Below are positions 9,364 through 63,343 of a DNA stretch of 64,000 bases, one piece after another; the stretch's first letter is position 1, and each line of letters begins with the position of its first letter. The notes below the pieces were generated by a model. It ran no database searches and was not told the origin of the DNA. It was given only the letters and a program-made list of their open reading frames with translations. Source of the stretch: a virus; the IMG/VR virus record IMGVR_UViG_3300012347_000286, positions 3,266 through 67,265 of that record. One strand, written 5' to 3'. Made by a program: the position numbers and the translations under genes.

Positions 9364-9783
9364 ATGTTGAATTGCTTCTTCTACATCATGGTGCTTACAC
9401 ACAATGGTAAAGTTGGATTTGGAATTACTGGCAATGTACACAATCGTATTTTCGACTACATTGCTGGTTCTGCTGAGTTACAATCGTTCAAGTATCTCTA
9501 TTACGGCTCCCGTGCTGACATTGCCGATATTGAGAAGAAACTCAAAGCTGAGTGGAAACGACACATGTGGAAAGTGTTCAAAGGTAACAAATGGACTCTT
9601 GAAATTCTTGACCCATCGTCAGGGCTGTCAGCAGAAGATGTACAAGAATGGGTAAACAATAAGATTGTTGAACTCAACTTACCTATCCGTGTCATTAAAG
9701 ATGAATGGTTGCCCTATCAAGGTGACAAGCGAGTTACCCGTAAATTCATTGAACTTAGCCCAGATATGTATCTTGAGCCTTGA
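9364..9783 (+). CDS. hypothetical protein (139 aa)
   Basis: Track ORF immediately after the upstream stop. Confidence 0.5.
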   Translation: MLNCFFYIMVLTHNGKVGFGITGNVHNRIFDYIAGSAELQSFKYLYYGSRADIADIEKKLKAEWKRHMWKVFKGNKWTLEILDPSSGLSAEDVQEWVNNKIVELNLPIRVIKDEWLPYQGDKRVTRKFIELSPDMYLEP

Positions 9784-9808
9784 CATTTTCTAAATATACG
9801 TATATAAT
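9780..9808 (+). promoter_or_regulatory. sigma70 promoter (TTGACA-17-TATAAT); FEN ATG lies only 6 nt downstream of the -10
   Basis: -35 at 9780-9785 and -10 at 9803-9808; ATG at 9815. Confidence 0.7.
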
Positions 9809-9814
9809 AGACAC

Positions 9815-15705: not shown

Positions 15706-15734
15706 TTGACAATTAATCGTTTTGGGCATATAAT
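15706..15734 (+). promoter_or_regulatory. sigma70 promoter (TTGACA-17-TATAAT)
   Basis: Consensus hexamers with an A/T-tract spacer CGTTTTGGG. Confidence 0.7.
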
Positions 15735-24532: not shown

Positions 24533-25732
24533 ATGACTGATGAATCAAAACAACTAAACCATTGTAGTTTCTGCGGAGCAAGCAAAGAAGCAGTTAAAAA
24601 ATTAGTAGTAGGTGAAACTGCCGCTATTTGTAGTGACTGTATTGAACTTTGTGAGGACCTAATTGAGGACGAAATCTCGGAAGAACAGGAGACTACAAAT
24701 CCTGACTACGATCCTGAATCTATCAAAGAGTTTCTGGATCAGCATGTCATCGGTCAAAATGATGCTAAAACTGTATTGAGCGTTGCCATTGCAAACCATT
24801 ACAAGCGTATCAATCACCCACCAAAAGACTTAGAGATTCAAAAGGGAAACGTTCTTATCGTAGGGCCCACGGGTAGTGGTAAAACATTGCTTGCTAAGAC
24901 TGCTGCCAAGTTTCTCAAAGTGCCCTTTGTAGTCGCTGATGCAACTAGTTTGACAGAAGCCGGATACGTCGGTGATGATGTAGAATCCATGATATCAATG
25001 TTACTTAACGCGGCTGGGGGAGACAAAGAACTAGCAGAGCGCGGTATTGTATTCGTTGATGAAATTGACAAAATCGCCCGTAAGAGCGAAGGTTCTAGTA
25101 TCACACGTGACGTATCCGGCGAAGGCGTACAGCAAGCACTATTGAAGATGGTTGAAGGCACAACTTGTCGAGTACAAAGCTCCGGTGGACGCAAGCACCC
25201 AGGCGGTGATATGGCTGAAATCAACACAAAGAACATCCTCTTTATTGCAGGCGGTGCTTTTGTTGGATTGAAAGACGTTATCGGTAAAAGAACAAACAAC
25301 TCTGGCATTGGCTTCACTGCCGGTGTCAAGGATGCTAAGGTTGAAGGTGACTTGAGTAAAGTAACACCCGACGACTTGACTAAGTTTGGTATGATTCCTG
25401 AGTTTATCGGTCGTTTCACAACTACAGTAAGCATTAGCGAATTGACCAAAGAACAGTTAATCCACATTCTTACTGATGTTAAGAACAATTATGTTGCTCA
25501 ATATAAGTATTTGCTCAAGTTAGATGGAATCGAGCTAACCTTCACTAGTGATGCATTGGATGAACTAGCAGAACGTTGCTTAAAACTCAAAACAGGTGCT
25601 CGTGGATTGCACACTGAGATTGAACGTGTACTAATGCCCCATATGTATCGTACTAGATACTACCGCCAAAATGAAATTAAGATGCTAAATATAGATAAGG
25701 AGCAGGTTATAAACCCACAAGCTATTCTATGA
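24533..25732 (+). CDS. clpX: ClpX ATP-dependent protease ATPase subunit
   Basis: N-terminal C4 zinc finger (CSFCG...CSDCIELC), Walker A GPTGSGKT, GYVG pore loop, Walker B VDEIDK and IGF ClpP-docking loop. Confidence 0.9.
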   Translation: MTDESKQLNHCSFCGASKEAVKKLVVGETAAICSDCIELCEDLIEDEISEEQETTNPDYDPESIKEFLDQHVIGQNDAKTVLSVAIANHYKRINHPPKDLEIQKGNVLIVGPTGSGKTLLAKTAAKFLKVPFVVADATSLTEAGYVGDDVESMISMLLNAAGGDKELAERGIVFVDEIDKIARKSEGSSITRDVSGEGVQQALLKMVEGTTCRVQSSGGRKHPGGDMAEINTKNILFIAGGAFVGLKDVIGKRTNNSGIGFTAGVKDAKVEGDLSKVTPDDLTKFGMIPEFIGRFTTTVSISELTKEQLIHILTDVKNNYVAQYKYLLKLDGIELTFTSDALDELAERCLKLKTGARGLHTEIERVLMPHMYRTRYYRQNEIKMLNIDKEQVINPQAIL

Positions 25733-25950
25733 GCATAAAAGGCAGACGAGTACAAGTACATGACGGCAACGTTGAAAAAGCGTTGCGCAAATTTAAGAAG
25801 AAAATTCTTGAGCAAGGTCTTATCCAAGAGATACGTGACCGACAAGAATATGTGAAACCAACGACCAGACGCAAAGTTGCTGCGGGACAAGCGGAAAGTC
25901 GTTGGAAGAAACATCTACGTAGCCAACAGCTACCCCCAAAACAATACTAA
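25729..25950 (+). CDS. rpsU: ribosomal protein S21 (bS21) homolog
   Basis: VEKALRKFKKKILEQGLIQEIRDRQEYVKPTTRRK aligns with E. coli S21 ([32 protein letters not shown]). Confidence 0.8.
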   Translation: MSIKGRRVQVHDGNVEKALRKFKKKILEQGLIQEIRDRQEYVKPTTRRKVAAGQAESRWKKHLRSQQLPPKQY

Positions 25951-26056
25951 CCCAATAATATACAAATATTTTACGCAATCATGTAAAATATATAAATACG
26001 TTATAGATGCTTAACTGGTCTATAAGTTACAATCTTGCTTTTTAAAGGAGAAAAAT

Positions 26057-27937
26057 ATGAGCAAAGTCATCGGTATCGACCTCGGTACCACAAATTCATG
26101 CGTAGCCGTTATTGAAAACGGAATCCCCAAAGTTATTGAGAATTCAGAAGGTGCTAGAACAACACCATCTATCGTTGCTTACACAAGTGATGAAATTCTA
26201 GTAGGCGCAAGCGCAAAGCGTCAGGCAGTAACAAACCCAAAGAACACAGTATACGCAAGCAAGCGTTTAATCGGTCGCAAGTTCGCCGAAGAAGCTGTCC
26301 AAAAAGATATTAATTTGATGCCATACAAAATCGTTGCTAATGACAACGGTGATGCATGGGTTCAAGTTAACGAAGATAAGTTAGCACCTCCGCAAATCTC
26401 AGCAGAAGTATTGCGCAAGATGAAGAAGACTGCGGAAGACTATCTAGGTGAAGAAGTCACCCAAGCAGTTATCACAGTTCCAGCATACTTTAACGATAGT
26501 CAACGTCAAGCAACGAAAGATGCTGGTCGTATTGCTGGTCTAGAAGTATTGCGTATTATCAACGAACCAACAGCAGCCGCACTAGCATACGGTGTTGACA
26601 AGCAAGACAAGAAAGACCGTAAAGTCGCAGTCTATGACTTAGGTGGAGGTACGTTTGACGTATCTATCATTGAGTTGGCAGACGTTGATGGTGATAAGCA
26701 GATTGAAGTTCTATCAACAAACGGCGACACTTTCTTGGGCGGTGAAGATTTCGACCAACGCATCATGGATTACTTGGTTGAAGAGTTTAAGAAAGAGTCC
26801 GGCGTTGACTTGACTAAAGACGTTCTTGCATTGCAACGTTTGAAAGAAGCCGCAGAGAAGGCTAAGATTGAATTGTCAAGTTCACAAAGCACAAGTGTTA
26901 ACTTGCCATACGTTACAGCAGACGCATCAGGTCCTAAACACTTGAACGTTACAATCAATCGTGCTAAGTTGGAACAACTAGTTGATGAATTGATTCAACG
27001 TAGTCTTGCCCCATGTAAGCAAGCGATGAAGGATGCAGGCGTTACTGCAAGTGACATTGACGAAGTTATCTTAGTCGGTGGTATGACACGTATGCCAAAG
27101 GTGCAAGAAGTTGTTGAACAATTGTTTGGCAAAGCACCTCGCAAAGATGTTAACCCAGACGAAGCAGTTGCCGCTGGTGCAGCTATTCAAGGTTCTGTTC
27201 TAGCAGGTGACCGTACTGACGTTCTATTGCTTGACGTTACTCCACTATCATTGGGTATCGAAACGATGGGCAATGTGTTCTCAAAAGTTATCAACAAGAA
27301 TACAACTATCCCTACTAAGGCTTCACAGACTTTCAGTACAGCACAGGACAATCAACCTGCTGTTACAATCAAAGTAGGACAGGGTGAGCGTGAACTATTC
27401 CAATATAATAAAGTACTTGGTGAGTTCAACTTAGATGGTATTGCACCAGCACCCCGCGGTATGCCTCAAATCGAAGTTACGTTTGATATTGACGCAAACG
27501 GTATCATGCACATCAGTGCTAAAGACAAGGGTACAGGTAAAGAGAACAAAATCACTATCAAGTCTAACTCAGGTTTGACAGAAGCAGAGATTCAGCAAAT
27601 GGTTAAAGATGCTGAGGACAATGCAGAAGCAGATAAGAAACACGTTGAATTGGTACAAGCACGTAACGGTGCTGAAGGTACGTACAACACGTTTAAGAAA
27701 GACTTTGATTCATACAAGGATCAAGTAACAGAAGAAGAACGTACCAAAGCAGAAGAAGCATTGAACGCTATTCAAGAGGCACTTAAAGGTGAAGATGTAG
27801 AAGCAATTCAAAAAGCTACTACTGATTTGTATCAATCGATTGGTCCAATCACCGCTAAGAAGCACGAAGCAGAAGAGGCTGCAAAGCCAAAAGCTGATGA
27901 CAACATCACTGATGCAGAAGTTAAGGAGGCGGTATGA
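26057..27937 (+). CDS. dnaK: DnaK (Hsp70) chaperone
   Basis: [22 protein letters not shown] and [11 protein letters not shown] are Hsp70 signatures; full-length. Confidence 0.95.
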
Positions 27938-28386
27938 GCAACAGAGGCACTTTAACACTACGTTCAATAGACGTTCCTTCTATTCATAAATTTGGTATTG
28001 GTTTTGATTCAATGATAGATGAATTGATGCGAGTCAGTTCTGCCCAAACAACAAGTAACTATCCTCCTCATAACGTCATTAAGACAGGTGAGAATACTGT
28101 TCTGATTGAAATGGCAGTTGCAGGATTCGCAGAAGGTGAGATTAATATCTCCACTGAGAACAATATCCTTACTATCCATGGTCAGCAGTTCCGCAACGAA
28201 CCCGTTAACTATGAATATTTGCATCGAGGATTGAGTAGCAGAGACTTTACCCAAAACTTCAGATTAGCTGAACATGTTGAGGTAAAAGATGCTACAATCA
28301 AGAACGGCATTCTTACCATCTTACTAGAGCGTGATGTTCCGGAAGAAAAGAAGCCCAGAAGTATTGCTATTAATTTCAATAAATAG
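27934..28386 (+). CDS. small heat-shock protein (Hsp20/alpha-crystallin, IbpA-like)
   Basis: Alpha-crystallin domain pattern (GILTIHGQQ ... [11 protein letters not shown]); coupled to the dnaK stop. Confidence 0.75.
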
Positions 28387-28395
28387 TATAATATG

Positions 28396-28430
28396 AGCAT
28401 AGTGCGGGGATAGTCCCCGCACTCTTAACA
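28396..28430 (+). terminator. perfect hairpin (AGTGCGGGGA / TCCCCGCACT) after the sHSP gene; no T-run
   Basis: 10-bp stem with 4-nt loop. Confidence 0.45.
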
Positions 28431-28441
28431 GGTCTACATAT

Positions 28442-28750
28442 ATGGCACAATCAGATACCCAAGTGACAATCAAACCCAATCTTAAATTAACTGAACCACC
28501 TTTGTATAAGGTTATCTACATGAACGATGACACGACTACAATGGACTTTGTTGTCCGTAGTCTAATTGAACACTTCAACTATACTATGGAGACTTCTGAG
28601 AATATTACAACCAGTATTCACGAAGCCGGCTCTGCGGTTGTTGCAGTACTACCCTATGAAATTGCAGAACAAAAGGGCATTGAAGTAACGTTAGATGCAA
28701 GAAGTGAAGGCTTTCCCTTGCAAGTCAAAATCGAAGTTAGTGAAGGTTAA
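28442..28750 (+). CDS. clpS: ClpS-like adaptor protein
   Basis: YKVIYMNDDTTTMDFVVRSLIEHF parallels the ClpS core (V.LLNDDYTPMEFVV.VL...F). Confidence 0.7.
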   Translation: MAQSDTQVTIKPNLKLTEPPLYKVIYMNDDTTTMDFVVRSLIEHFNYTMETSENITTSIHEAGSAVVAVLPYEIAEQKGIEVTLDARSEGFPLQVKIEVSEG

Positions 28751-29439
28751 ATCGTCACTTCAATTCGTTTAGCATAATAGGGTTCCCTATCATGCTTTGG
28801 ATTATTTAAATAGTTGATACCGTTTATCATGGTATCAACTATTTTTTCATGTGTTCCGAAAACCCAATGTGATATCTTATGCTCAGTGTCAGCGTGAGTG
28901 ACATAATCTAAGGTAATATCAGTTAACGTACCCTTTTCTCCAAAGTACAATTTGTTAGAAGGTACGCAGTTTGATGCAATAATTATCTTCTTCACATCTA
29001 CGTGTAGTTGTAGTCGCTCAATGGTTTTTTCTAAGTAACTCATATCATCAAAGAAATGAGATTTTAAATCAAACTCATCCGCAGTAGACATACTTTCATA
29101 ATTTTTATACCAACCGTTGATTCCCACGATTGCTATCCCGTCAACGACTACTACGTTGTTATGTAAATATACTGCATTCCCGATACGCGAGGTCAAGTGC
29201 CCAATCGAATCGAGGGTGTCTTCTCTTGATTGTAAGTCTTTGTTTTCAAGGGCCCCGTCGATGAAGAATACACCTTGATATAATTTACTCAAGTGATGCA
29301 ATGCTTTAGCGACCGTAAAGATATCATCCGATAGATTACCGGCTACAATGCAGTACAGACTGGTAGGTTTTCCCTCCCAGTCAAATTCAGAATCGCTGAC
29401 TAGGTGTAAGTCGCTAATGATGTCAAATCCAAAAATCAT
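28747..29439 (-). CDS. putative metallophosphoesterase-like protein
   Basis: N-terminal DIISDLHL (D-x-H) and VAGNLSDD motifs; weak. Confidence 0.45.
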   Translation of the reverse strand: MIFGFDIISDLHLVSDSEFDWEGKPTSLYCIVAGNLSDDIFTVAKALHHLSKLYQGVFFIDGALENKDLQSREDTLDSIGHLTSRIGNAVYLHNNVVVVDGIAIVGINGWYKNYESMSTADEFDLKSHFFDDMSYLEKTIERLQLHVDVKKIIIASNCVPSNKLYFGEKGTLTDITLDYVTHADTEHKISHWVFGTHEKIVDTMINGINYLNNPKHDREPYYAKRIEVTI

Positions 29440-29492
29440 AATGTATTTATGAAAAAAGGGACCGAAGTCCCCTTTAAAGTAGCATATTTAGA

Positions 29493-29738
29493 TTATGCTT
29501 TTGGCTTTTTAGCAGCTGGCTTCTTTGCTGGGGCCTTTGCAGCTGGGGCTTTCGCCTTAGCTGGGGCTTTCGCTTTCGGTGCTGCTTTTGGCTTAGCTGG
29601 TGCCTTAGGTGCTGCCTTAGGTGCTGCTTCTGCAACAACGGGGGTAGCATTTACTGCTTCAACTTTAGTAACTTCTGCTACAACGGGTGTTGCAACAGGT
29701 TCGCTACTACCAAAAATCTTCTTTAGAAATGAAAACAT
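29493..29738 (-). CDS. Lys/Ala/Pro-rich histone-H1-like (AKP-repeat) DNA-binding protein (81 aa)
   Basis: AGGAG RBS on the minus strand; PKAAPKAPAKPKAAPKAKAPAKAKAPAAKAPAKKPAAKKPKA tail. Confidence 0.6.
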   Translation of the reverse strand: MFSFLKKIFGSSEPVATPVVAEVTKVEAVNATPVVAEAAPKAAPKAPAKPKAAPKAKAPAKAKAPAAKAPAKKPAAKKPKA

Positions 29739-29802
29739 GTTTTTCTCCTTGAACTACTATTTAGACGCATACTTACGTACATATATTTTTTTAAATAAGA
29801 GT

Positions 29803-30294
29803 ATGGCGCTTACTAATCTTAGTTTGTCGGAACTCATGGATTTGCCTTTACCCAGTGTAACTGTGCAGAAGCGTCTTCCTTTTCGCCCAACAAAGTACTT
29901 CCTACATCATGCGTATGAACTCATAAACTATGAGGTTTTCGGAAATACTATGTACAAAGCTACATTAGAACTACGTCCTAACTGTAGAAAGTACTGGGGA
30001 ATGTGTGAGGGGCATATAAAACCAGTGATGACTGGTAGCTACTGTAACATCATTATGATGGATAAATGGTTCTGCCCACAGTGGTTTATCACTACTCTAG
30101 CACACGAAATGGTGCATCAATATCAATGGGATGTGCTTGGTCCTGAAAGACAAGCTAATGGGAAAGATTGGTTAATGAGTCACGGTCCTAGCTTCTATGC
30201 ATTCAGAGAAGATTTAGAGCCACACAATATCTCATTAAAAACGGCGCATTCTCAGCGCCGTTGGTTTAAACATCAAGATTTGTTTAAGGCTTAA
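29803..30294 (+). CDS. SprT-like / WLM-type zinc metalloprotease domain protein
   Basis: HEMVHQYQW is an HExxH motif. The 5' part of the track ORF is antisense to the AKP gene and is rejected. Confidence 0.55.
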   Translation: MALTNLSLSELMDLPLPSVTVQKRLPFRPTKYFLHHAYELINYEVFGNTMYKATLELRPNCRKYWGMCEGHIKPVMTGSYCNIIMMDKWFCPQWFITTLAHEMVHQYQWDVLGPERQANGKDWLMSHGPSFYAFREDLEPHNISLKTAHSQRRWFKHQDLFKA

Positions 30295-31451
30295 CGTTTA
30301 GCACGTGTAGCACGTTCGCTACCTACTTCAGGTTCTACTTCAGGTTTAGCTTCCTTAGAAACCTTCTGTTTAGCGTTAGGGTTACTTGTAACGTTTCCGT
30401 TAACGTCAACAAGAACAACGTCCTTGTCACCCTTCTTACCGATACCACGAGCTAATGTAACACCCAATGTACGCAATCCTGGAAGAGGATTGCTACGTGT
30501 ACTGTCGTTACGAATCAACCAAACCATCAAGTGACTTTCAGGAATGTCTTCTTTGCTAGTGATAACAGCATGACAGTCAACAGTTACATTGTTGCCTTCT
30601 TGCACGAAATGCTGAGGCTTGAATGTCTGAATGACGACTCCGCCCTTTGGATTCAAGTCGCTACCAAAGATAGCTGATAATCCTTCTTCTGGAGTAGGCT
30701 CAACAACGATTTCTTTGTCTAACTTGTAAACTGGATTAGTCGCACCTGTCTTCTTGTCTACTGTCTCGCTAATCTTGATTAGATTGACTGCACCTTGTTT
30801 GACAAGTTTCTTGATGATTTCTTTAGCCTTCTCACCGAACAAGCTATCAGCACTTTCCCACATGTCAGCATTAACTTTCTTAATACTGATAGGCAACGCA
30901 CCCTTTTGACTACGCAACACAACGTCAGCTTTTTTGCGGTTTGCAGTGTCACGTCCTGCAACGTCAACGTTTGTGCAGTTTTTGATAGCCATTTTCTTAC
31001 CACGAGGGTCTTTGAATGTAACGTTGACTGAGCCGTACTTGTCAACAACTGATTGAAGAATACTAGCCATTTCCAATTCGTTAGCAACGCCAGCAGACTT
31101 CTCACCCTGACCACCTGAATCTTTGATGACAATAGAAACAGGACTGTTTTGGAAGATGATGCCGCCCAAACTGCTTAGTTTAGGGTTATCACTGTAAGTT
31201 GGTTGATACTCTTTAAGTGTCTTTTGAAGACCTGCAAGAATCTCGCCCAAAATCTGATTACGGAACTCATCTTTGCGTTGACCTTCGGGAATCTGAACTA
31301 AGACTTCAATCTTGTTGCTTGCCTTATCCTTGATTTCCTCGTAGCCGATTTTAGCTAGTGCTGCGACAACTGTTGGTTTGGTCAAAGTCGTAGCGATTGG
31401 GCTAGCTGCTTCAACCAAAGTAGTTGCAAATTCATAGTGTCTCATGTACAA
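30291..31451 (-). CDS. hypothetical protein (386 aa) with Lys-rich C-terminal tail
   Basis: Track ORF convergent with the SprT-like gene; no family recognised. Confidence 0.6.
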   Translation of the reverse strand: MYMRHYEFATTLVEAASPIATTLTKPTVVAALAKIGYEEIKDKASNKIEVLVQIPEGQRKDEFRNQILGEILAGLQKTLKEYQPTYSDNPKLSSLGGIIFQNSPVSIVIKDSGGQGEKSAGVANELEMASILQSVVDKYGSVNVTFKDPRGKKMAIKNCTNVDVAGRDTANRKKADVVLRSQKGALPISIKKVNADMWESADSLFGEKAKEIIKKLVKQGAVNLIKISETVDKKTGATNPVYKLDKEIVVEPTPEEGLSAIFGSDLNPKGGVVIQTFKPQHFVQEGNNVTVDCHAVITSKEDIPESHLMVWLIRNDSTRSNPLPGLRTLGVTLARGIGKKGDKDVVLVDVNGNVTSNPNAKQKVSKEAKPEVEPEVGSERATRAKR

Positions 31452-31533
31452 TCTCTCATGTAGTTAGTGAAGTGATAATTATATCACCGATTTAGTATTT
31501 ATCGCAAATTATTTTTAACAAAGGCAAAAAAAA

Positions 31534-32127
31534 ATGAGTTTAGTTCCAATCGTAGTAGAATCTACTTCCAAAGGTGAGCGCAGTTACGACATTTACAGTC
31601 GGTTGATGCGTGACCGTGTTATCTTGCTTGAGGGCGAAGTTCACGACCAAATGGCAAACTTGATTGTTGCCCAACTACTTTTCTTGGAATCAGAAGATGC
31701 GACTAAAGACATTAGCATGTACATTAACTCTCCGGGTGGTTCGGTTACTGCTGGTATGGCCATCTATGATACTATGCAATTTATTGCCCCCGACGTTCAA
31801 ACAATCGTCATGGGTCAGGCTTGTTCTATGGGTAGTCTTCTCGCTCAGGGAGGGGCAGCTGGAAAAAGATTCATGCTCCCAAACGCACGACACATGATTC
31901 ATCAGCCCTCTGGTGGCGCACGTGGTATGCAAAGTGACATTGAGATTTCTTACAAAGAGATTACATATTTGAAAACTCGTTTGACTGAAATCTACGTTGA
32001 ACACAATAGCAAGGGCAAGACCTACGCAGAGTTTGAGAAGGATATGGATCGTGACACATTCATGTCAGCACAACAAGCGTTAGACTATGGTCTGATTGAC
32101 AAGATTGTGACAAAACGAAACGGTTGA
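31534..32127 (+). CDS. clpP: ClpP protease proteolytic subunit
   Basis: [10 protein letters not shown] (Ser), MIHQP (His) and RDTFMSA (Asp) form the catalytic triad. Confidence 0.9.
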
Positions 32128-37197: not shown

Positions 37198-37198
37198 T

Positions 37199-37227
37199 TG
37201 ACATTTAACCATAACTGTGATATAATC
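37199..37227 (+). promoter_or_regulatory. sigma70 promoter (TTGACA-17-TATAAT)
   Basis: GATTGACATTTAACCATAACTGTGATATAAT. Confidence 0.7.
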
Positions 37228-37232
37228 ATACT

Positions 37233-38084
37233 ATGAAAATCGCACTATGCAGTGACCTGCACTTAGAATTTAAAGACATTGAACTATTCAACACCGAAGG
37301 TGCTGAGGTATTGATCCTATCTGGCGACATTATGGTTGCCGATAGCTTGCACAATCACGAGCCACCTACTGTGACTAGTCCATACGAGCCGTATCAAAAG
37401 CTAGGGCATAACGCATTGATGGCTCAACGATATCGTGCTTTCATGGAACGTGTGAGCAAAGAGTTCCCTCACGTTGTTTACGTTGCTGGTAATCACGAGT
37501 TCTATCACGGCAAGTGGGTAGGCTCTATCCAAGACCTTCGCAATGAGGCTGCACGGTATCCCAACGTGTACTACTTAGAGCGTGATATGAAAGTTATCAA
37601 TGACGTAACCTTTGTCGGTGCGACATTATGGACTGACTGCAATAAGGGTGACCCGTTGACACTTCACGCATTGACTGACATGATGAACGACTTCCGCATC
37701 ATCCGAAACGATGAAAAGGGTTACACAAAGTTGCGTCCTGCGCATACAATGTGGCGTCATCAACAAACTCTCAACTACTACACAACTGTTATCGGTGACC
37801 GTAAAGACGAGAAGATTGCGGTCGTTGGTCACCATGCACCAAGTAAAATGAGTACGCATGAACGTTACCTTGCACCCGAGCATTCTTTGATGAACGGTGG
37901 TTATAGTTCGGACCTTAGTGAGTTCATTCTTGACCATCCTCAAATCAAATTGTGGACGCACGGGCACATGCACGACCCATTTGATTACAACATCGGTGAG
38001 ACACGCATTGTCTGTAACCCTCGCGGTTACGGTGGTCACGATCCACAAGCTGATGTGTTCAAGCTACAGTTTTTGGATATCTAA
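37233..38084 (+). CDS. calcineurin-like metallophosphoesterase
   Basis: CSDLHLE (DxH), ILSGDIMV (GDxxD) and VAGNHEF (GNHE). Confidence 0.8.
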   Translation: MKIALCSDLHLEFKDIELFNTEGAEVLILSGDIMVADSLHNHEPPTVTSPYEPYQKLGHNALMAQRYRAFMERVSKEFPHVVYVAGNHEFYHGKWVGSIQDLRNEAARYPNVYYLERDMKVINDVTFVGATLWTDCNKGDPLTLHALTDMMNDFRIIRNDEKGYTKLRPAHTMWRHQQTLNYYTTVIGDRKDEKIAVVGHHAPSKMSTHERYLAPEHSLMNGGYSSDLSEFILDHPQIKLWTHGHMHDPFDYNIGETRIVCNPRGYGGHDPQADVFKLQFLDI

Positions 38085-44989: not shown

Positions 44990-45166
44990 ATGACCAGTAA
45001 AACTGAAAAAGCAAGATACGAAGTAATCACACAAGAAGACCCTGACACAGGTGACCTCATTATTCCGTTGCCACCGGAGCTACTAACTGAGTTAGGCTGG
45101 AAAGAAGGTGATGACATTCAATTTGATGTGGGCACTGACGGTAGGATTATTGTTCGCAAAGTTTAA
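44990..45166 (+). CDS. AbrB/MazE (SpoVT-AbrB swapped-hairpin) family small protein (58 aa), not in the ORF track
   Basis: LIIPLPPELLTELGWKEGDDIQFDVGTDGRIIVRK matches the AbrB/MazE fold pattern. Confidence 0.5.
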   Translation: MTSKTEKARYEVITQEDPDTGDLIIPLPPELLTELGWKEGDDIQFDVGTDGRIIVRKV

Positions 45167-45567: not shown

Positions 45568-45606
45568 TTGACAATAACTCTATAATCCACTATAATTGAC
45601 TATAAT
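45568..45606 (+). promoter_or_regulatory. sigma70 promoter with three TATAAT hexamers phased 10 bp apart (TTGACA ... TATAATccacTATAATtgacTATAAT)
   Basis: -35 at 45568-45573; the second TATAAT sits at the canonical 17-nt spacing. Confidence 0.55.
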
Positions 45607-45625
45607 CAACTATGAATCAAGTCCT

Positions 45626-46018
45626 ATGACCATGCATCTTCATCACCCATCACTATCAATGGGTGGCAAACGCAAAGGTAAAGTTAAATTTCGCAATGCT
45701 GACGAGGCTCGCAAAGCCCGTGAGCTTGATGCATCCTGGAAAGAGTTGCAAAAGAAGTGGGAAGTTGACCTGGAAGAAAAGAAACGTAGCAGAGCAATGA
45801 GAGCCGAGCCACTCACTTACAAACTAAGTGCACCAGTTGGACGTTCCACTTCTACGCATATCCCTAGTCGTGTAACAGAAGGTCATTCAACTTCATCCGT
45901 ACACAAGGTCTACACAGGCGACAAGATTCTAGGCATTGCAACACTGCACAAGTCAAACGCTGTTCCAGTCTTCTCCCAGCAAGAAGCTGTTGATATTTCA
46001 AAGATGCGCCGTGGATAA
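45626..46018 (+). CDS. hypothetical basic protein (start uncertain)
   Basis: Track ORF 45596..; no clear RBS. Confidence 0.35.
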   Translation: MTMHLHHPSLSMGGKRKGKVKFRNADEARKARELDASWKELQKKWEVDLEEKKRSRAMRAEPLTYKLSAPVGRSTSTHIPSRVTEGHSTSSVHKVYTGDKILGIATLHKSNAVPVFSQQEAVDISKMRRG

Positions 46019-46311
46019 TGGTATATATTACTGTGAAATAGCAGGGAATTACACCCCTGAATTCACTAAGGGTGTGACTAGCATACCCTATAGACGAGAG
46101 TACCATACAAAAATATTACGTTGTATTTCATACAGTGATAGAGTATGGATACAGGGTCCTAGGGGCGGAGTAAAGATAGTTAAAAATAGACGAGACATGA
46201 CAAACGTGTATGGTTATGTTACCAAGAACGAAAAACTAATGAAAGAGTTTATGTGGGTCAAACTACAAGCCCAAACTCTTGCATACTACAATTAAGGAGA
46301 AAGTGAACTAA

Positions 46312-46527
46312 ATGGCGAAAGAAGAAGGACTGAAAATGGATGGTAAGGTAATTGAAGTATTACCCGACACCAAGTTCAGAATCACCCTGCAAAACGGGAT
46401 AACAGTAATGGGATATCTGTCCGGTAAAATGAGACAGCACACCATCAAAATTCTACTAGGGGACACAGTAGAAGTAGAATTTAGTCCCTACGATATGACA
46501 AAAGGTCGAATCACACGTAGACGATAA
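46312..46527 (+). CDS. infA: translation initiation factor IF-1
   Basis: MAKEEGLKMDGKVIEVLPDTKFRITLQNGITVMGYLSGKMRQHTIKILLGDTVEVEFSPYDMTKGRI is about 50% identical by eye to E. coli IF1; TAAGGAG RBS. Confidence 0.85.
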   Translation: MAKEEGLKMDGKVIEVLPDTKFRITLQNGITVMGYLSGKMRQHTIKILLGDTVEVEFSPYDMTKGRITRRR

Positions 46528-46541
46528 CTAAATACTCTACG

Positions 46542-47093
46542 ATGTACGATATTGTAGAGAAAATAGAAGAATCCCGTAAAAAGAAAATAGAGATAGAACC
46601 TCTATCTTATTCCAACACCGATTTAAGCCCAGTTCTAAGTAAAGCCACTATGGATTATCACTATGGTGATTTAGCCCACGGCTATGTGAAACGCTACAAT
46701 AGCGGTGAGGGTGACAGTGACTTTAATTATGCAGGCGCCTTTTTGCATAATATCTACTTTCAACAATTTCAAAAGCCACAAGAAAGTGGTACACCCAACG
46801 GTCCTGTACTCAATCTAATCAAACGCAAGTATGGTTGGTGGAGAGATTTCAAAGAAGTATTCAAAACTGAAGCAATGAAGATCCAGGGCTCAGGCTGGAT
46901 TTATCTATCGTTCAGTGGTGACATAAAGACCATAGAAAATCACGAGGTACGTGATGACATTCTTATCTTAGTTGACTGGTGGGAGCATGCCTGGGCTCTC
47001 GACTACCAAGCTGATAAGAAAGCCTATTTAGAGAATATCTGGAAGATTATGAATTGGAGCCATATCAACACCCGTTGGGGAAAGAATCTCTGA
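46542..47093 (+). CDS. Fe/Mn superoxide dismutase-like protein
   Basis: DWWEHAWALDYQ matches the SOD D-x-W-E-H-A-Y-Y motif, and the N-terminus has His-containing helices. Confidence 0.65.
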   Translation: MYDIVEKIEESRKKKIEIEPLSYSNTDLSPVLSKATMDYHYGDLAHGYVKRYNSGEGDSDFNYAGAFLHNIYFQQFQKPQESGTPNGPVLNLIKRKYGWWRDFKEVFKTEAMKIQGSGWIYLSFSGDIKTIENHEVRDDILILVDWWEHAWALDYQADKKAYLENIWKIMNWSHINTRWGKNL

Positions 47094-47119: not shown

Positions 47120-50100
47120 ATGGCTATTCCAGGACAAGCAAATATTAATATTGGTGCAGAAAATCAAGTTGCAGGAAGCGACAACTTGTATGAAGCATTT
47201 CACACCATTCAAAACAACTTCACAACATTATTCAATGCCTCTAGCACTCTAACTACGTTTAGAGCCGGAGAAGGTATTCAAGTATCAGCGAATGCAAGCA
47301 ACGGCGTTGTCGATATCAACAACACTGGGGTAACTAAAATTACAGCAGGAACCGGAGTCACTATCTCTAGTGCAAACGGTAATGTAACTATTTCAACCGC
47401 TGCTCAAGGTCAGACTGGAGTTACACGAGTTGGACTAACGTCTTCAACGTTAAATGTAGGTGGCGTTTCTGGTAGTAATGTAGTTAGCTCAGGTACATTC
47501 ACTGTCGATTTACCCCGAGTGCCCACTAGCAGCAGTTTTGCAACCGGGTCTTACATTGCACCAAACGTAACAGTAGACGAGTTCGGTAGAGTTACAGCCA
47601 TTGCGAACGGTGTAGGTGTAGGTACTGTGACCAGCGTAGGTATTAATCCTGGAAAAGGTATTGCAGTTACCGGTGGTCCGATTGTTGATTCGGGTGCAAT
47701 TGATGTTATCAATACAGGTGTCACTAGCTTACAAGCGGGTACTGGTATTAGACTATCCGGATCCAATGGGGATATAACAGTATCTGCACTACAAGTAACT
47801 TCCGGTACTGTCACACAAATAGGATTAACTAGTAATACGTTGTCAGTTACTGACGGAACAGTGACCTCATCAGGCACTATCAACGTAGAGCTTCCAGTAA
47901 ACTTATCATCTAATAATTTGATACTGAGCGGAAACGCAAACGTATCCGGTAACGTGAATACGTACAAGTTAGTTTCTACATTCTCTAACGTGCAAACAGA
48001 CTTGACTATCGGTGGCGGTCCAAGCCCCGGGTCACTAACATTTAAAACACAAAATAACTCAGGAAACTACGTTTCATTAATTCCACCTGTTAACACAGCA
48101 GTAGCTGGATTAGTTTTCATGTTACCGAATACGTTGGGATCAAACTCACAAGTATTAGGTACTGACGGCGCAGGAACAATGAACTGGAGAATTCCTCCTG
48201 CTGCAGGTACAAACACGCAGATTCAATTCAATGACCCTGCAAGTAACGGAGCTCCGCAATTAGCCGGACATGCAAACCTTACGTTCAATAAAAACACCGG
48301 TCTATTAACATCACAGCAACTATCTGTTACTGCAAACGCAAACGTCGGTAACTTGAGCACTTCAGGAACTGTGACCGCATCGAGATTTATATCAAACGTT
48401 GCCACAGGCACAACACCGTTTACTGTTACCAGTACTACTATGGTAACTAACTTGTATTCTCAATACGCAAACTCTATCGTTGCTAATGCACAACCTAACA
48501 TCACGAGCGTGGGTAGACTATCTAGCCTTACTGTAGGCAATGCAACTGCAAACGTTGTGTTAGGGAACAGTACTATTACTACGTCTGATATCACTGCTAG
48601 TAATGCGTTTGTGTTGACCAATACTGCTTCATTATTATTCAATACTCAAACAAGTAATACCAAATTTACAGCGTTGCAACCACCAGATACTATTTTAGCC
48701 GGTGCCGGACTATATGCAAATGGAACCCCGGGTGGCAATGCATTCATGTTCTGGAATCTACCGAACACATGGGGCAACGTGAATCAATTCCTGACCACTG
48801 ATGGTTCAGGAACAATGCAGTGGTCTAATGTTCCTGCAAGTTCACCGGGATTTGACGGTGCAAATATAATCGCAATTTCTAACACAACCGTTTCTACAAC
48901 AACTACAACGGGTGCGTTGACTGTTGGTGGCGGGGTCGGTGTAGAAGGTAACGTAAATGTCGGTGGCAACTTAGCATTAGCTACAGGTGGCATCAATGTA
49001 GGCGGTGGTAACTTAACTGTAACTCAAACTGGTATGCTAGGTGCTAGGAATCTCACGTTGTCCAGCGGTGCTAACATTTCAGGTGATGTTAATTTTCTAG
49101 CATTCAGTGATGTACGATTTGCTGGCAATATTGCTGGTAATGTTTCCTTCAGAGGAGATTATTTTAACTTTGGTAGCAATGCTGTTATTTCAGGTGGTGG
49201 GTATATCACTAGTAAAGACATTACTGTAAATGGTAGAGTTGAAGCGACCGGTAATATTACAAGCAGTAGCTATGTTGACGGTCAGTATGTCAAAGCTAGT
49301 ACAGCATTATACGTATACGGGCAGTCACAACTAGGAAACGTCGGCAACGTGTATATTACAGGCGGCACTTCAGGACAAGTATTGTCCACTGATGGGACTG
49401 GTAACTTGTCATGGATCTCTGCTTCAAGTGGCGGTGGTAGTAGTTTTGATGCATCACAACAATTAACTATCACAAACACAAACACATCTACTAGTTACAT
49501 TACCGGTGCTGTAAGAGTTGCAGGTGGCATGGGCGTAATCGGCAACATCAACGCTGGCGGTAATGTTACATCTACGATTACTGCAAGCAATATTACCGGA
49601 AACGTAAGTTACTCAAGCTATTCAGGTGCATTTACAAATACAACAGGTGAGTGGATGCAGTCTGGTCTATATTATGACGGAACAAATATCATTATCAATG
49701 AAAGGTTCTGGAAAGACCCCATCGGTTTCGCTCAAGTCAAATCTGCAATATCAAACGGTGTTCAGTTTGGAGTTGACCCAGGTGGTTACAGTATATTACC
49801 AGTGACTCCGTCAGGTGACTGGGTAGAACAGACGATGTACGGGGCGGGTATATGGACTATTACTGTAGGTACTATTAGTGGTGTACCGAGTGGAACACTA
49901 GCAGTTATATCTATCAGCAATATAACGCTTAATGATGGTGGGTTAGTTTCTGCTAAGTTAGTATCAGGTCAAGTTCTTAAAACAGCGTTGAACGGTCAAT
50001 TAATAACTAATAAAATTTCTTCACACAATGCCGATGTTACGATATCTACGTTTGACGTAATGTTTAATGCATATCGTAAGATTTATCTAGGTGGTTTTGG

Positions 50101-50431
50101 TTCTGCAACTATCGCTCTAGATGACACCATGAAAATGGACAGTCAAGGTATAATTCAGAGAACTAATGGCAACATTACAATCATGCCGAACATTCAGACA
50201 GCCGATGACAATATTATAATGTCTCCTGCTACTGTTAGTGCAAAATTTGTAGCCACAATAGGAACTACCTTTTCTGCACTAAGTAATCAAGGAACACCTG
50301 CTGCAGGTCAACGTGCATTTATCACTGATGGTGACTTAGCCGCAGCCGGTAACTTTGGCGCAGTTGTAGGCGGAGGAGGCTCGAATGGAGTGCCCGTTTA
50401 CTATGATGGAAGTACTTGGCGCATTGGATAA
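47120..50431 (+). CDS. large repeat-rich tail fiber-like protein (1103 aa)
   Basis: G/T/S/N/V-rich beta-repeat composition and an internal ~64-aa (~190-nt) duplication. Confidence 0.65.
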   Translation: MAIPGQANINIGAENQVAGSDNLYEAFHTIQNNFTTLFNASSTLTTFRAGEGIQVSANASNGVVDINNTGVTKITAGTGVTISSANGNVTISTAAQGQTGVTRVGLTSSTLNVGGVSGSNVVSSGTFTVDLPRVPTSSSFATGSYIAPNVTVDEFGRVTAIANGVGVGTVTSVGINPGKGIAVTGGPIVDSGAIDVINTGVTSLQAGTGIRLSGSNGDITVSALQVTSGTVTQIGLTSNTLSVTDGTVTSSGTINVELPVNLSSNNLILSGNANVSGNVNTYKLVSTFSNVQTDLTIGGGPSPGSLTFKTQNNSGNYVSLIPPVNTAVAGLVFMLPNTLGSNSQVLGTDGAGTMNWRIPPAAGTNTQIQFNDPASNGAPQLAGHANLTFNKNTGLLTSQQLSVTANANVGNLSTSGTVTASRFISNVATGTTPFTVTSTTMVTNLYSQYANSIVANAQPNITSVGRLSSLTVGNATANVVLGNSTITTSDITASNAFVLTNTASLLFNTQTSNTKFTALQPPDTILAGAGLYANGTPGGNAFMFWNLPNTWGNVNQFLTTDGSGTMQWSNVPASSPGFDGANIIAISNTTVSTTTTTGALTVGGGVGVEGNVNVGGNLALATGGINVGGGNLTVTQTGMLGARNLTLSSGANISGDVNFLAFSDVRFAGNIAGNVSFRGDYFNFGSNAVISGGGYITSKDITVNGRVEATGNITSSSYVDGQYVKASTALYVYGQSQLGNVGNVYITGGTSGQVLSTDGTGNLSWISASSGGGSSFDASQQLTITNTNTSTSYITGAVRVAGGMGVIGNINAGGNVTSTITASNITGNVSYSSYSGAFTNTTGEWMQSGLYYDGTNIIINERFWKDPIGFAQVKSAISNGVQFGVDPGGYSILPVTPSGDWVEQTMYGAGIWTITVGTISGVPSGTLAVISISNITLNDGGLVSAKLVSGQVLKTALNGQLITNKISSHNADVTISTFDVMFNAYRKIYLGGFGSATIALDDTMKMDSQGIIQRTNGNITIMPNIQTADDNIIMSPATVSAKFVATIGTTFSALSNQGTPAAGQRAFITDGDLAAAGNFGAVVGGGGSNGVPVYYDGSTWRIG

Positions 50432-50434
50432 ACA

Positions 50435-50462
50435 AAAAGCCCCGAAAGGGGCTTTTTTATTT
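50435..50462. terminator. bidirectional rho-independent terminator (AAAGCCCC-GAAA-GGGGCTTTTTT)
   Basis: Perfect stem with A-run upstream and T-run downstream; marks the switch from plus- to minus-strand transcription. Confidence 0.8.
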
Positions 50463-51993: not shown

Positions 51994-52000
51994 AACCTTT

Positions 52001-53540: not shown

Positions 53541-53691
53541 GTCCTCGATTGCGATGTTTTGGTTGACGATTGTACTTGCCCTTTTTGGACTCTACCACCT
53601 TGGGTTTGAACGGCGTGTCCTCACAGAATAGAACACGATGGACCCGATGTTTGGGCTGTTTAACAGTGAAGGATAGTAGTTCTTTTTTCAT
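53530..53691 (-). CDS. small basic protein (53 aa), apparently leaderless; its stop lies inside the next promoter
   Basis: ATG is 6 nt after the -10; K/R-rich (KPKVVESKKGKYNRQPKHRNRG). Confidence 0.4.
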   Translation of the reverse strand: MKKELLSFTVKQPKHRVHRVLFCEDTPFKPKVVESKKGKYNRQPKHRNRGLDN

Positions 53692-53697
53692 AACGAA

Positions 53698-53726
53698 ATT
53701 ATAGCATGAACTCTATTTAGTGTCAA
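53698..53726 (-). promoter_or_regulatory. sigma70 promoter (minus; TTGACA-17-TATAAT)
   Basis: Reverse complement reads GGTTGACACTAAATAGAGTTCATGCTATAAT. Confidence 0.65.
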
Positions 53727-59319: not shown

Positions 59320-60720
59320 TTATTTGCGAGAGTTTGCTCGGACTTCGTCAAAAGTGTAAGACTTTGTAAGACTACCATCTTCGTAGACAGTAACCAATGC
59401 GTCAGTCCAACCACCAATGCCTTTGTCTGACCAACCTGTTGGGGCTGATACACCAGATGCATATTCGCCACCACTGTTAGTGAACAAACGAACACGACCA
59501 CCTTTACTACGTTTGCCTGAGTCAGTGATAGGATCCTTGACTACATCGATCCATTTACCATCGACCTGGACACTTGAGCATTTCATTGCGAAACGTTGGG
59601 TGTCGCGGTCCACGATTTGCAACAACGCTCCACCCATGCCAAAAGCAATATTATCAGCACTGTACCCAAGAGCCATAAAAGCACCGAGAATCCCGCGAAT
59701 AGTAAGTTCATTTACACCATCTCCTTGAATGAGGCGAACGTTGTTCAACACTTTAAAGCCTTTAGAGTTTTTCACACTACCGAACTTCATGTCCAGAATT
59801 TGTACCAACTCTTTGTTGACTGTGATAGGATCACCTGAGTCAGGACGAATCACAACCACTGCACCACTATCAATAACTTGTTGACGCAATTCTTCACCCC
59901 AGATTTTACTGGCTGCGTTGAAAATGTCGTAGCTATCAGATACAAACGCAACGATAGAGCCGGGCTTACCGTATTGTGTTAACATGTTGCTGTAGGCTTT
60001 TGCTTCGTTTTCACGGCCCCAACTTGTTACAGTGCTGTGCTCCATTGCAGGAATGCTGTAACCGCAAACGTCAGCATCATAATACTCCATAGCGTACAGA
60101 ATACCAGTAATAGTGTCGGTACCCATAAAGTTAATGAGATGTCCCGCACCACCAATCCCAGCGCTTTCAAGAGAGCTAACGCCCCGAGCACCGAAATCGT
60201 GTAACTTAAAATCAATACCACTTGGGTCTCCTGTCTTTTCTAAGTACTCGGCAATCACTTTCTTGATTGTGTAAGATTGTGTTGCCACTGTTGTGCCATA
60301 CCACACTGCACGAAGCAATGATGTTTCAAGCCAAGTTGTCAACCAGAAACAGTTAGGGTCTGTGTTCTCAATTGTTGCAAGTACGTTCGAGACCGGAACA
60401 ACAGAGCCTTCGGGTACCGCTCTAATAACAACTGGGAGATATCCGTTGTGGTTGTCAAGAATGTACTGCCATCCTTCTCGGTTAAAGGGGACACCGTGTG
60501 CTGTGAGGATTTTGTCTGCGGTGTCAATGTCAGCTTGGGTAATTGGGCTGAGTAAGTATTCTTTGATAAAAGCCTGTAATCCGAAGAATACCGTTCTATC
60601 ATAACGGCCCCCTCGTGACTCAATGTACGAGTATACACCTGTAGTTCCTACTGGATATTGTTTGAACATTGATACTTTATAGCTATCTGTGTTCAGGATG
60701 ATGTTTTTAGCGAGTTTCAT
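59320..60720 (-). CDS. nadV: nicotinamide phosphoribosyltransferase (NAMPT / NadV)
   Basis: N-terminal NIILNTDSYKVSMFKQYP and overall length are typical of NadV (as in KVP40-type phages). Confidence 0.9.
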   Translation of the reverse strand: MKLAKNIILNTDSYKVSMFKQYPVGTTGVYSYIESRGGRYDRTVFFGLQAFIKEYLLSPITQADIDTADKILTAHGVPFNREGWQYILDNHNGYLPVVIRAVPEGSVVPVSNVLATIENTDPNCFWLTTWLETSLLRAVWYGTTVATQSYTIKKVIAEYLEKTGDPSGIDFKLHDFGARGVSSLESAGIGGAGHLINFMGTDTITGILYAMEYYDADVCGYSIPAMEHSTVTSWGRENEAKAYSNMLTQYGKPGSIVAFVSDSYDIFNAASKIWGEELRQQVIDSGAVVVIRPDSGDPITVNKELVQILDMKFGSVKNSKGFKVLNNVRLIQGDGVNELTIRGILGAFMALGYSADNIAFGMGGALLQIVDRDTQRFAMKCSSVQVDGKWIDVVKDPITDSGKRSKGGRVRLFTNSGGEYASGVSAPTGWSDKGIGGWTDALVTVYEDGSLTKSYTFDEVRANSRK

Positions 60721-62323: not shown

Positions 62324-63343
62324 TTATGCACCCACAGCCCACATGACCATGTCATAGTGGTCTTCGAAACATTCGTCACTGCGTACTTCTGCGATTGGTA
62401 CCCAACGTGCTTTTTCAGCGTCATCACTACCTTTCACCTTAGGCAACTCACCATCAGGCAACTGAATCTTGAAACAGTGTGTGATGATACGACCACGGGG
62501 TGAACGATCCACAGCGTCAAATACACGATTGTCAACGATGCTACCACGCAACACGGGGCCTGGTACTTTAATCATTGTTTCTTCGCGCAGTTCACGAATA
62601 GCCGCATCCAATACTGTCTTGTCGGTGTTTGCGTTGACGTAACCACCGGGCAATGCCCACAAGCCACGACCGGGTTCAGCACGGCGTTTAATCATCAACA
62701 CGTGACCCGAACAGATAACAACACTGTCAGCAGTAGAGAAGATTGGAGGGTACTTCAAGCTGGCATATTGTTTGTTGTGTTCAATCAAGAATTCACGTTC
62801 GCGGATAATCTGTTCATACTCAGGAGTATCCTTGAAAGCATCCAAGTAGACGAATGTACTTTGTGGAACCACAGCTTTAATGAAGTTCATGTTTACATCA
62901 CGTTTGAAATACAAGTCACGGATGTTAACTGCACTGAGTGGTTCAATTTCTTCCACATCAACGTATTCCCATTGGGGGAACATATCCAAGTAGAAACTTG
63001 ATTCGTCTTTTTTGTGACCGATGATGGCAGTTTTAGTGCCGAGGATGCGATAACGACTTACGATACTCTGGATGCGTACTGCCCAGGCTTGGTCATTGTA
63101 CATGGTGTCAATGTTTTCTTCGATGTGAATACTCATTGACAGACCGCCTGTAGCAGCCTTAATCATTCTAGCACGTTCGGCACTAGTGAACGGGTTTTTG
63201 TAAGTGCGGGGTTGAGCAGCCGATCCTGTGATAATCACGAGGTTGTCGGTCAATGCTGTGGCTCGCTTGATAATCTCTAAGTGAGCATTGTGGAAGGGTT
63301 GAAAGCGTCCAATGAGGACTAGTGTACCATATTCTTTTGACAT
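62324..63343 (-). CDS. nadM: bifunctional NMN adenylyltransferase / Nudix hydrolase (NadM-Nudix, NatV-like)
   Basis: GRFQPFHNAH is the (H/T)xGH nucleotidyltransferase motif. The Nudix box is GGYVNANTDKTVLDAAIRELREETMI. Confidence 0.85.
   Translation of the reverse strand: MSKEYGTLVLIGRFQPFHNAHLEIIKRATALTDNLVIITGSAAQPRTYKNPFTSAERARMIKAATGGLSMSIHIEENIDTMYNDQAWAVRIQSIVSRYRILGTKTAIIGHKKDESSFYLDMFPQWEYVDVEEIEPLSAVNIRDLYFKRDVNMNFIKAVVPQSTFVYLDAFKDTPEYEQIIREREFLIEHNKQYASLKYPPIFSTADSVVICSGHVLMIKRRAEPGRGLWALPGGYVNANTDKTVLDAAIRELREETMIKVPGPVLRGSIVDNRVFDAVDRSPRGRIITHCFKIQLPDGELPKVKGSDDAEKARWVPIAEVRSDECFEDHYDMVMWAVGA

Follow-up and report, generated by a model that had tools for sequence, protein, structure and literature searches.

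Genes for translation initiation factors and ribosomal proteins are known from the largest phage genomes. IF1, IF3 and S21 or other ribosomal-protein genes have been reported in huge phages (Al-Shayeb et al. 2020, PMC7162821), the same three were reported again for soil huge phages, and phage-encoded bS21 was described by Mizuno et al. 2019, as cited in PMC7162821. Superoxide dismutases (SODs) of viruses and prophages have been described as Cu,Zn enzymes, namely SodC of the Gifsy-2 and O157 prophages (PMC2569942) and the Megavirus chilensis enzyme and its poxvirus homologues (PMC9405923). Our literature search for a characterised phage Fe/Mn SOD returned only such Cu,Zn SODs (from prophages, poxviruses and giant viruses) together with host sodB responses to infection, and neither the PA5oct omics paper nor a 2026 jumbo-phage review mentions a SOD; as a gene annotation, SOD is already present in PA5oct-like jumbo phage genomes. 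Here we describe a 64,000-nucleotide stretch of viral DNA (IMG/VR record IMGVR_UViG_3300012347_000286, positions 3,266 to 67,265; hereafter the window), in which infA, the gene for translation initiation factor IF-1 (46312..46527, + strand), is followed by a gene for a compact Fe/Mn-type SOD (sod, 46542..47093, + strand). We consider it probable that the window derives from a jumbo phage whose predicted sigma-70 operon carries an orthodox IF-1 and a compact dismutase as neighbours that are not obligate partners.

The infA gene and its upstream region

Judged by its sequence, the 71-amino-acid (aa) product of 46312..46527 is an orthodox, full-length IF-1 orthologue with a 71-aa OB-fold. It matches Pfam PF01176 with an E-value of 2.5e-22 (78.7 bits; cut-off 30.2) and the NCBIfam infA equivalog TIGR00008 with 102.9 bits against a cut-off of 61.15, and its residues 1-70 align without a gap to residues 1-70 of the solved IF1 chains 2n78_A and 9fco_I. 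An earlier note on this DNA had put the identity to E. coli IF1 by eye at about 50%; the counted value is 38/71 (53.5%), and together with the TIGR00008 score it bears the assignment out. The signatures LPN/D, GKMR, IxIL-GD-V-VE, PYD and GRI..R are all kept, at a level of at least 90% in 109 clade members, while Ile and Tyr stand in place of His29 and His34, positions at which T. thermophilus IF1 has Pro and Tyr. Across the infA-sod region the opposite strand holds only short open reading frames (ORFs) of 52 aa or less, and the presence of the two adjacent genes is well outside what chance would give.

The best 120 database matches to this IF-1 are all metagenomic proteins of 71 aa with 72-99% identity, several of them on contigs of 340-360 kb, and because of this the gene is, on sequence grounds, long established in its clade and no recent capture. 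When infA was compared with contigs encoding an identical protein, the DNA differed by 4-7%, with 8-15 synonymous and 0 non-synonymous changes, a synonymous-only result that is biased in that these contigs had been retrieved through exact protein identity. The codon changes in sod numbered 37-44 synonymous vs. 12-23 non-synonymous, and across the set of loci anchored on SOD the identities range over 57-80% for IF-1 and 56-86% for SOD, which are similar rates of divergence. Both genes, whose products stay 56-87% identical over the clade, appear to evolve under purifying selection. The strong Shine-Dalgarno (SD) sequence of infA, AAGGAG, lies at 46294..46299 (+ strand), 12 nt before the ATG, and the string running from SD to ATG (AAGGAGAAAGTGAACTAAATG, 21 nt) is unchanged in contigs that carry other genes upstream. 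By orthology, the phage IF-1 would most likely bind the 30S A-site as cellular IF1 does and, beside the phage bS21, would keep or raise initiation capacity as host gene expression collapses.

The stretch preceding infA, 46020..46310, was described in the earlier note as lacking a convincing ORF and as a possible structured leader, and neither statement survived the comparison with relatives. It is occupied by a 94-codon gene (UP94; 46011..46295, + strand) with a GTG start and a TAA end, which overlaps the stop of the preceding gene, UP140, by 8 nt and is homologous to a 93-aa gene in the related loci L003, L006 and L007; in contigs with an identical IF-1, the 93-aa gene is called at this position. 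Between UP94 and its L003 counterpart, 30 of the 51 substitutions fall in third codon positions, and 24 synonymous codon changes stand against 14 non-synonymous ones. UP94 belongs to no Pfam or NCBIfam family. In favour of a structured regulatory leader of infA, the single sequence folds somewhat better than its shuffles (z = -2.59), only 2 of 200 of which equalled it, whereas the consensus fold of eleven homologous stretches is negligible (-2.42 kcal/mol, 13 pairs, one compensatory change), conservation runs in triplets, and no Rfam family was matched anywhere in the window, this stretch included. Moreover, the entire stretch, UP94 with it, is missing in many relatives, in which UP140 ends 25-30 nt before infA. 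Based on the coding-type substitutions, the absence in relatives and the negligible consensus fold, we reject the leader, which we regard as extremely improbable.

The compact superoxide dismutase

The 183-aa product of sod was assigned from Pfam domains, a ligand alignment and an AF2 model. It matches Sod_Fe_C (PF02777) with an E-value of 6.3e-21 and 74.8 bits (cut-off 20.9) over profile positions 2-102 of 102, and Sod_Fe_N (PF00081) marginally, with 28.4 bits vs. 27 and over profile positions 3-41 of 82 only. That a SOD-like gene retaining D-x-W-E-H directly follows infA, as the earlier note had it, is correct: sod starts 14 nt past the infA stop, and D-W-W-E-H occupies residues 145-149 (46974..46988). 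The loss of metal ligands that the same note had named as evidence to the contrary is not seen, as HMMER alignments to 3ak1, 4ffk and 8avm place all four of them (+ strand) at H40 (46659..46661), H69 (46746..46748), D145 (46974..46976) and H149 (46986..46988). These ligands are invariant in 32 SOD relatives (72-93% identity) and in 46 distinct IMG/VR sequences (51-86%), and in the same sequences so are Tyr48 (equivalent to Tyr34), the GSGW motif, Trp147, Glu148 and Asn133-His134; the motif of the second ligand, N-x-A-G-x-x-x-H, is present in 46/46 IMG/VR sequences.

Compared with solved SODs, the protein has a deletion of about 20-25 residues at the tip of the hairpin, both helices of which are modelled (H34-53 and H59-74). 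The position of His30 is an invariant Leu44 in the compact SODs, which mostly carry Ala (Ala152 in the window protein) at the residue aligned with Tyr163 of E. coli FeSOD (Tyr166 of human MnSOD). In the second sphere, Tyr48, the outer-sphere His134 (ENHE) and the bridging Glu148 are kept and the His30/Tyr166 pair is lost. A Gly four residues ahead of the second ligand combined with an outer-sphere His is the archaeal/cambialistic arrangement, in keeping with A. pernix, P. gingivalis and B. fragilis SodFM2 being the closest matches by sequence as well as by structure. The AF2 model has a pLDDT of 89.5 and a pTM of 0.85, with the N-terminal 10 residues disordered, and in Foldseek it superimposes with TM scores of 0.80-0.84 and an rmsd of 2.1-3.3 Å, best on the cambialistic SODs of A. 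pernix, P. gingivalis and B. fragilis. The product would be a cytoplasmic enzyme of the Fe/Mn family with a shortened alpha-hairpin, no signal peptide and all four ligands, and it most likely dismutates superoxide inside the infected cell.

From the distribution of its relatives, this SOD is a member of a compact subfamily found nearly only in phages. Clustering at 50% divides the subfamily into a few dozen clusters (37 at E <=1e-30), mostly of 170-190 aa, and in the same clustered database search canonical SODs of about 200 aa start near 95 bits, with split alignments. Among 50,697 phage records, 25 were matched, comprising 12 clear phage genes (11 from PA5oct-like phages and one from a Vibrio jumbo phage) and a remainder consisting mostly of short fragments or bacterial records; among uncultured relatives, 57 IMG/VR loci carry the SOD, and its protein clusters with 72% identity or more number at least 120. 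The claim of the earlier note that phage SOD is rare is therefore right for cultured phages and wrong for the uncultured clade. A search of 185,579 species genomes for the subfamily returned just three matches, all on contigs of metagenome-assembled genomes (MAGs), one of which also shows the UP140-IF1-SOD synteny.

Source phage, predicted operon and gene context

Judged by relatives and gene content, infA and sod come from a jumbo phage that belongs to a widespread, uncultured clade with genomes of about 350 kb. IMG/VR viral contigs carry the SOD on 57 and the IF-1 on 80 occasions, and the genome size of the clade is taken from the contigs of 335-367 kb among them, of which there are several, and from a syntenic 357.5-kb ENA contig with matching gene order (dCMP deaminase, DUF4337, MazE-like, UP140, IF-1, SOD, fibre-like gene). 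UViG_3300042549_004104 is an example of the IMG/VR relatives of 350-360 kb. The window itself has 41% GC and about 110 tightly packed ORFs, largely in one direction, most of which have no family, and it includes genes whose only match is to a PHROG. Megablast with 24 kb of the window found no DNA-level relative among the 50,697 phage records, and the sole blastn match of the locus to phage records was a 120-nt SOD stretch in PA5oct-like phages. Searches with the DNA ligase and DnaK yielded no close cultured relative, the DnaK matches being mainly bacterial or contaminant records. Scanned over its full length for Rfam families and tRNAs, the window showed neither tRNA nor rRNA, and no aminoacyl-tRNA synthetase was seen in it. 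As to the host, weak hints come from the bins of the three MAG contigs (Haliscomenobacter, Polaromonas and Methylophilaceae) and from PhiW-14-like phages, in which UP140 has homologues. Separately, one 524.6-kb record, IMGVR_UViG_3300027749_002876, contains two distinct IF-1 loci (L074 and L112) with 80% and 71% identity to that of the window; in this record two related phages have probably been joined, by chimeric assembly or by concatenation.

Based on motifs, infA and sod would be the third and fourth genes of a single transcription unit, in which a promoter at 45568..45596 is followed by a five-codon upstream ORF (uORF), UP140, UP94, infA, sod, a gene for an 1103-aa protein and a terminator at 50434..50457. 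The predicted promoter (+ strand) is TTGACA-17-TATAAT, and because this is a perfect consensus of the host type, the unit is most likely transcribed by host sigma-70 RNA polymerase, and this probably happens early in infection. Most relatives have a perfect or near-perfect promoter in the same position, ahead of the UP140 homologue. The perfect TTGACA-N17-TATAAT occurs 16 times in the window vs. 0.06 expected, always oriented with the genes, and looks like a phage-specific class of early promoters. Other perfect sites are, for example, at 15706, 16388, 16649, 34374 and 34650 and, on the - strand, at 51995, 53130 and 53540, and in many of the 16 an extended spacer, AATTAATCNTTTTGGG, recurs together with a conserved leader, AGAnaCTTAGACAG, downstream.

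The uORF (MNQVL*, 45612..45629, + strand) closes with a TGA that forms an overlapping ATGA with the start codon of UP140, the gene that follows, which has no SD sequence. Of the 65 distinct upstream regions compared among relatives, 51 have an ATGA-ending uORF ahead of UP140, a count to be read with the phylogenetic non-independence of these loci and with the TGA being automatic given a conserved Met-Thr start; distant relatives that have no uORF have GGAG. We infer a function for the uORF. UP140 (45626..46018, + strand) is a conserved, basic 130-aa protein matching phrog_27048 from residue 11 of the longer ORF, and it has at least 7988 database protein clusters, nearly all of exactly 130 aa. 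Its gene is always the first long one past the promoter. It matches no Pfam or NCBIfam family, its AF2 model is poor (pLDDT 57), and distant homologues occur in the PhiW-14-like phages Delftia PhiW-14, Acidovorax ACP17 and Synechococcus BUCT-ZZ01. No SD is evident for sod, which starts 14-18 nt past the infA stop wherever the two genes are adjacent, and translational coupling between them is possible.

The last gene of the predicted operon (47120..50431, + strand) encodes the 1103-aa protein, which is repetitive, rich in Gly, Thr, Ser and Asn, fibre-like by composition alone, and without a Pfam, NCBIfam or phage-record match. Even where contigs have an IF-1 with 100% identity, the N-terminus of this protein reaches no more than 44-65%, which makes it hypervariable, as expected of a receptor-binding fibre. 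Directly past it, between convergent genes, lies the intrinsic-terminator-like hairpin (50434..50457, + strand) with a 10-bp stem, 5 GC pairs and a T-run. Upstream of the operon, and in the same place in the 357.5-kb relative, a 58-aa MazE/AbrB-like protein with a SpoVT-AbrB fold is encoded at 44990..45166, for which no toxin partner was identified. Elsewhere in the window, three of the 16 perfect promoters (9780..9817; 37198..37235; 53726..53689, - strand) have an ATG exactly 6 nt past the -10 hexamer, belonging to a 5'-3' exonuclease (9815), a metallophosphatase (37233) and a 53-aa ORF (53691). Since the Pfam domains of the exonuclease and the metallophosphatase align from residues 3 and 1, respectively, the mRNAs starting at 9815, 37233 and 53691 are probably leaderless.

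About 20 kb from infA, a homologue of ribosomal protein bS21 (25729..25950, + strand; PF01165, 49.9 bits; TIGR00030, 53.1 bits vs. a cut-off of 28.95) is encoded between ClpX and DnaK, within a proteostasis block at 24533..32127 (+ strand) made up of ClpX (24533..25732), bS21, DnaK (26057..27937), Hsp20 (27934..28386), ClpS (28442..28750) and ClpP (31534..32127). The PA5oct-like phage Callisto has the gene order clpX-ibpB-clpS-sodB-ftsH-lig, and as the SOD of PA5oct-like phages sits among clpX, ibpB, clpS and ftsH, with no infA, the window SOD fits a stress and proteostasis set (ClpXP, ClpS, DnaK and Hsp20) better than a translation toolkit, and most likely belongs with these phage genes. The proposal in the earlier note that IF-1, SOD and S21 form a toolkit for taking over translation thus keeps its initiation part, which is plausible given the presence of bS21, and loses its SOD. 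In the 357.5-kb relative (L008, 10540..11468) genes for a DUF2608 protein and an A-type Fe-S carrier (PF01521) come after that of the SOD, with a ferredoxin 9 kb upstream, neighbours that hint at a link of the SOD to the protection of phage Fe-S proteins; PF01521 had no match among the window ORFs scanned with Pfam. Further genes of the window serve DNA and nucleotide metabolism (ATP-dependent DNA ligase, 5'-3' exonuclease, UvdE, dCMP deaminase and an NT5C-type nucleotidase) or form an NAD salvage pair of nicotinamide phosphoribosyltransferase (NAMPT) and an NMNAT-Nudix fusion (59320..60720 and 62324..63343, both - strand), which agrees with accounts of other jumbo phages (PMC11662467).

Alternative explanations and comparison with known systems

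Several observations weigh against the overall explanation given above and have to be set beside the alternatives. The window has neither a capsid nor a terminase gene, and the label "phage" depends on relatives and gene content; promoter and terminator are consensus matches only; and the IMG/VR loci are partly redundant, with synteny counts that are not independent. The SOD has lost about 25 hairpin residues, Leu replaces His30 and mostly Ala the equivalent of E. coli FeSOD Tyr163, and all NCBIfam SodA/SodB equivalogs score below cut-off (best NF007832, 72.5 vs. 348 bits), for which reason the name sodA or sodB is unsuitable. The His-Tyr pair spans the dimer interface, and human MnSOD mutants of it turn over about ten-fold slower but are still active; on this ground the activity of the compact SOD may be reduced or altered.

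That the window is cellular DNA, from a bacterial chromosome or plasmid, with infA and sod as ordinary host genes, might be argued from DnaK, ClpXP, infA, rpsU and sod, all typical cellular genes, and from the three SOD relatives in MAG bins. However, one of those MAG contigs itself carries the phage synteny, the SOD subfamily is missing from all the other species genomes searched, the relatives are IMG/VR viral contigs grouped near 350 kb, the genes are dense, unidirectional and mostly family-less with PHROG-only matches, and the IF-1 is just about 54% identical to the E. coli protein, all of which makes a cellular origin very improbable. With a phage origin preferred, infA and sod could still be a co-selected functional module in which, for instance, SOD guards the translation apparatus or the two share regulation. 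Indeed, in 56 of 76 informative IF-1-anchored loci infA lies upstream of sod on the same strand, with a gap of 55 nt or less in 29, and the 14-nt gap in the window without an obvious SD for sod fits translational coupling. Yet among all 79 such IMG/VR loci, in which sod is adjacent downstream in 29, follows after 0.18-3.4 kb in 27, is absent within at least 5 kb in 20 and could not be placed in three that are too short, the backbone tolerates both insertions, with up to 5 kb of unrelated genes between infA and sod in many relatives, and loss of the SOD; in L003 and L006, whose IF-1 is 100% identical, infA runs straight into the fibre-like gene. Further, PA5oct-like phages carry the compact SOD without any IF-1, and most of the more distant homologues of the SOD (51-60% identity) lack an infA inside 6 kb. 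Adjacency is for these reasons no evidence of joint function, a dedicated module is decidedly unlikely, and we interpret infA and sod as neighbours through a conserved but interruptible synteny that would not make them a functional pair.

What the two proteins do could also be read differently. Rather than boosting initiation, the phage IF-1 might compete with host IF1, bias the choice of start sites or mRNA classes, or act as a general RNA chaperone, an activity that IF1 has. Of its 71 residues, the window protein differs at 18 that are the same in the IF1 of E. coli, B. subtilis and T. thermophilus, its central KMR-x-x-x-IRIL stretch is partly altered (KMRQHTIKIL), and unusual modes of initiation are suggested by at least three apparently leaderless window genes and by an infA operon that opens with a uORF and not an SD. 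Given a score far over the infA equivalog cut-off, the retained length and signature motifs of cellular IF1 and the lack of any sequence sign of a dominant-negative form, we hold this to be unlikely and keep to an orthodox initiation factor. Of slightly greater, still low, probability is a SOD-like protein without efficient dismutase activity, serving a metal-binding or structural role like the FeSOD-like PAP9/FSD2 of plastid RNA polymerase. This would accord with the truncated hairpin and the Leu and Ala replacements, all (nearly) fixed in the subfamily, with the unsatisfied SOD equivalog models and with the appearance of PAP9 chains among the sequence and structure matches. PAP9 matches are, however, no better than those to ordinary SODs, and the ligands, Tyr34, outer-sphere His, GSGW and bridging Glu are invariant over 51-93% identity, a pattern otherwise unexpected, which argues that metal catalysis is under selection and leaves an active dismutase as the preferred reading. 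A broader proposal, which we regard as doubtful to a like degree, is that the compact SOD, without the hairpin tip and the His30/Tyr166 pair as a proton relay, is a phage-specific lineage with altered kinetics or metal use and that the infA operon belongs to a programme of non-canonical initiation, in which IF-1 and bS21 shift ribosomes between leaderless and SD-led mRNAs during infection; if true, leaderless early mRNAs and a uORF-coupled first gene would be part of the phage programme.

Current views are not overturned by these findings, as IF1 and S21 in huge phages have been published and the SOD of PA5oct-like phages has been annotated. The predicted sigma-70 operon and the conserved but optional synteny are additions to the known picture, the definition of a compact SOD subfamily, nearly confined to phages and altered in the second sphere, is a modest novelty, and a well-delimited, abundant, uncultured clade of about 350-kb phages joins the viruses with their own initiation factor and ribosomal protein. 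If active, the compact SOD would represent a SOD scaffold reduced to a minimum, and it would show directly that large phages control oxidative stress in the cell they infect along with proteostasis (ClpXP, DnaK and Hsp20).

Like the huge phages of PMC7162821, the window phage combines a full-length, bacterial-type IF-1 with bS21 in a genome of more than 200 kb, and the role proposed there, redirecting or sustaining translation initiation, is the same. By tblastn its IF-1 is 51-60% identical to those of Lak megaphages, Sinorhizobium phage Phosso and an uncultured 595-kb phage. The window locus differs from these in belonging to another clade, one without a DNA-level relative among the 50,697 phage records, and in placing infA in a conserved, predicted operon with a sigma-70 promoter, usually with sod downstream. 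The homologue at 25729..25950 resembles the described phage-encoded bS21 in that it scores above the equivalog cut-off; its gene, some 20 kb away from infA, belongs to a different block and is flanked by ClpX and DnaK.

For the SOD, the nearest described relatives, annotated as sodB, are found in Pseudomonas jumbo phages of the PA5oct-like group (Arenbergviridae/Wroclawvirus; for example, Callisto WMI31805.1) and in Vibrio phage 2.275.O, which encode compact SODs of 182-183 aa that share with the window protein the deletion of about 25 hairpin residues, Leu for His30, NHEVRDDI and D-x-W-E-H at 45.7% identity; the 182-aa Callisto SOD has the same hairpin deletion and second-sphere substitutions. 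PA5oct-like genomes and the window also have ClpX, ClpS, a small heat-shock protein and an ATP-dependent ligase in common, whereas the PA5oct-like SOD gene follows clpS without infA and that of the window follows infA. With the cellular SODs of the archaeal and cambialistic type from A. pernix (3ak1/3ak2), P. gingivalis (1qnn) and B. fragilis (SodFM2, 8avl) the window SOD shares the two-domain fold, the four ligands, Tyr34, the Glu of DxWEH, the Gly four residues before the second ligand and the outer-sphere His (ENHE in the window vs. EKHN), but it is only about 29% identical to cellular Fe/Mn SODs, its hairpin is shortened, and the His30 and Tyr163/Tyr166 positions are replaced. The Cu,Zn SODs of viruses and prophages resemble it as superoxide-scavenging enzymes on a viral genome and differ in their unrelated fold and metal family; prophage SodC, moreover, is periplasmic and contributes to bacterial virulence, whereas the window SOD would be a cytoplasmic Fe/Mn-type enzyme of a probably lytic jumbo phage.

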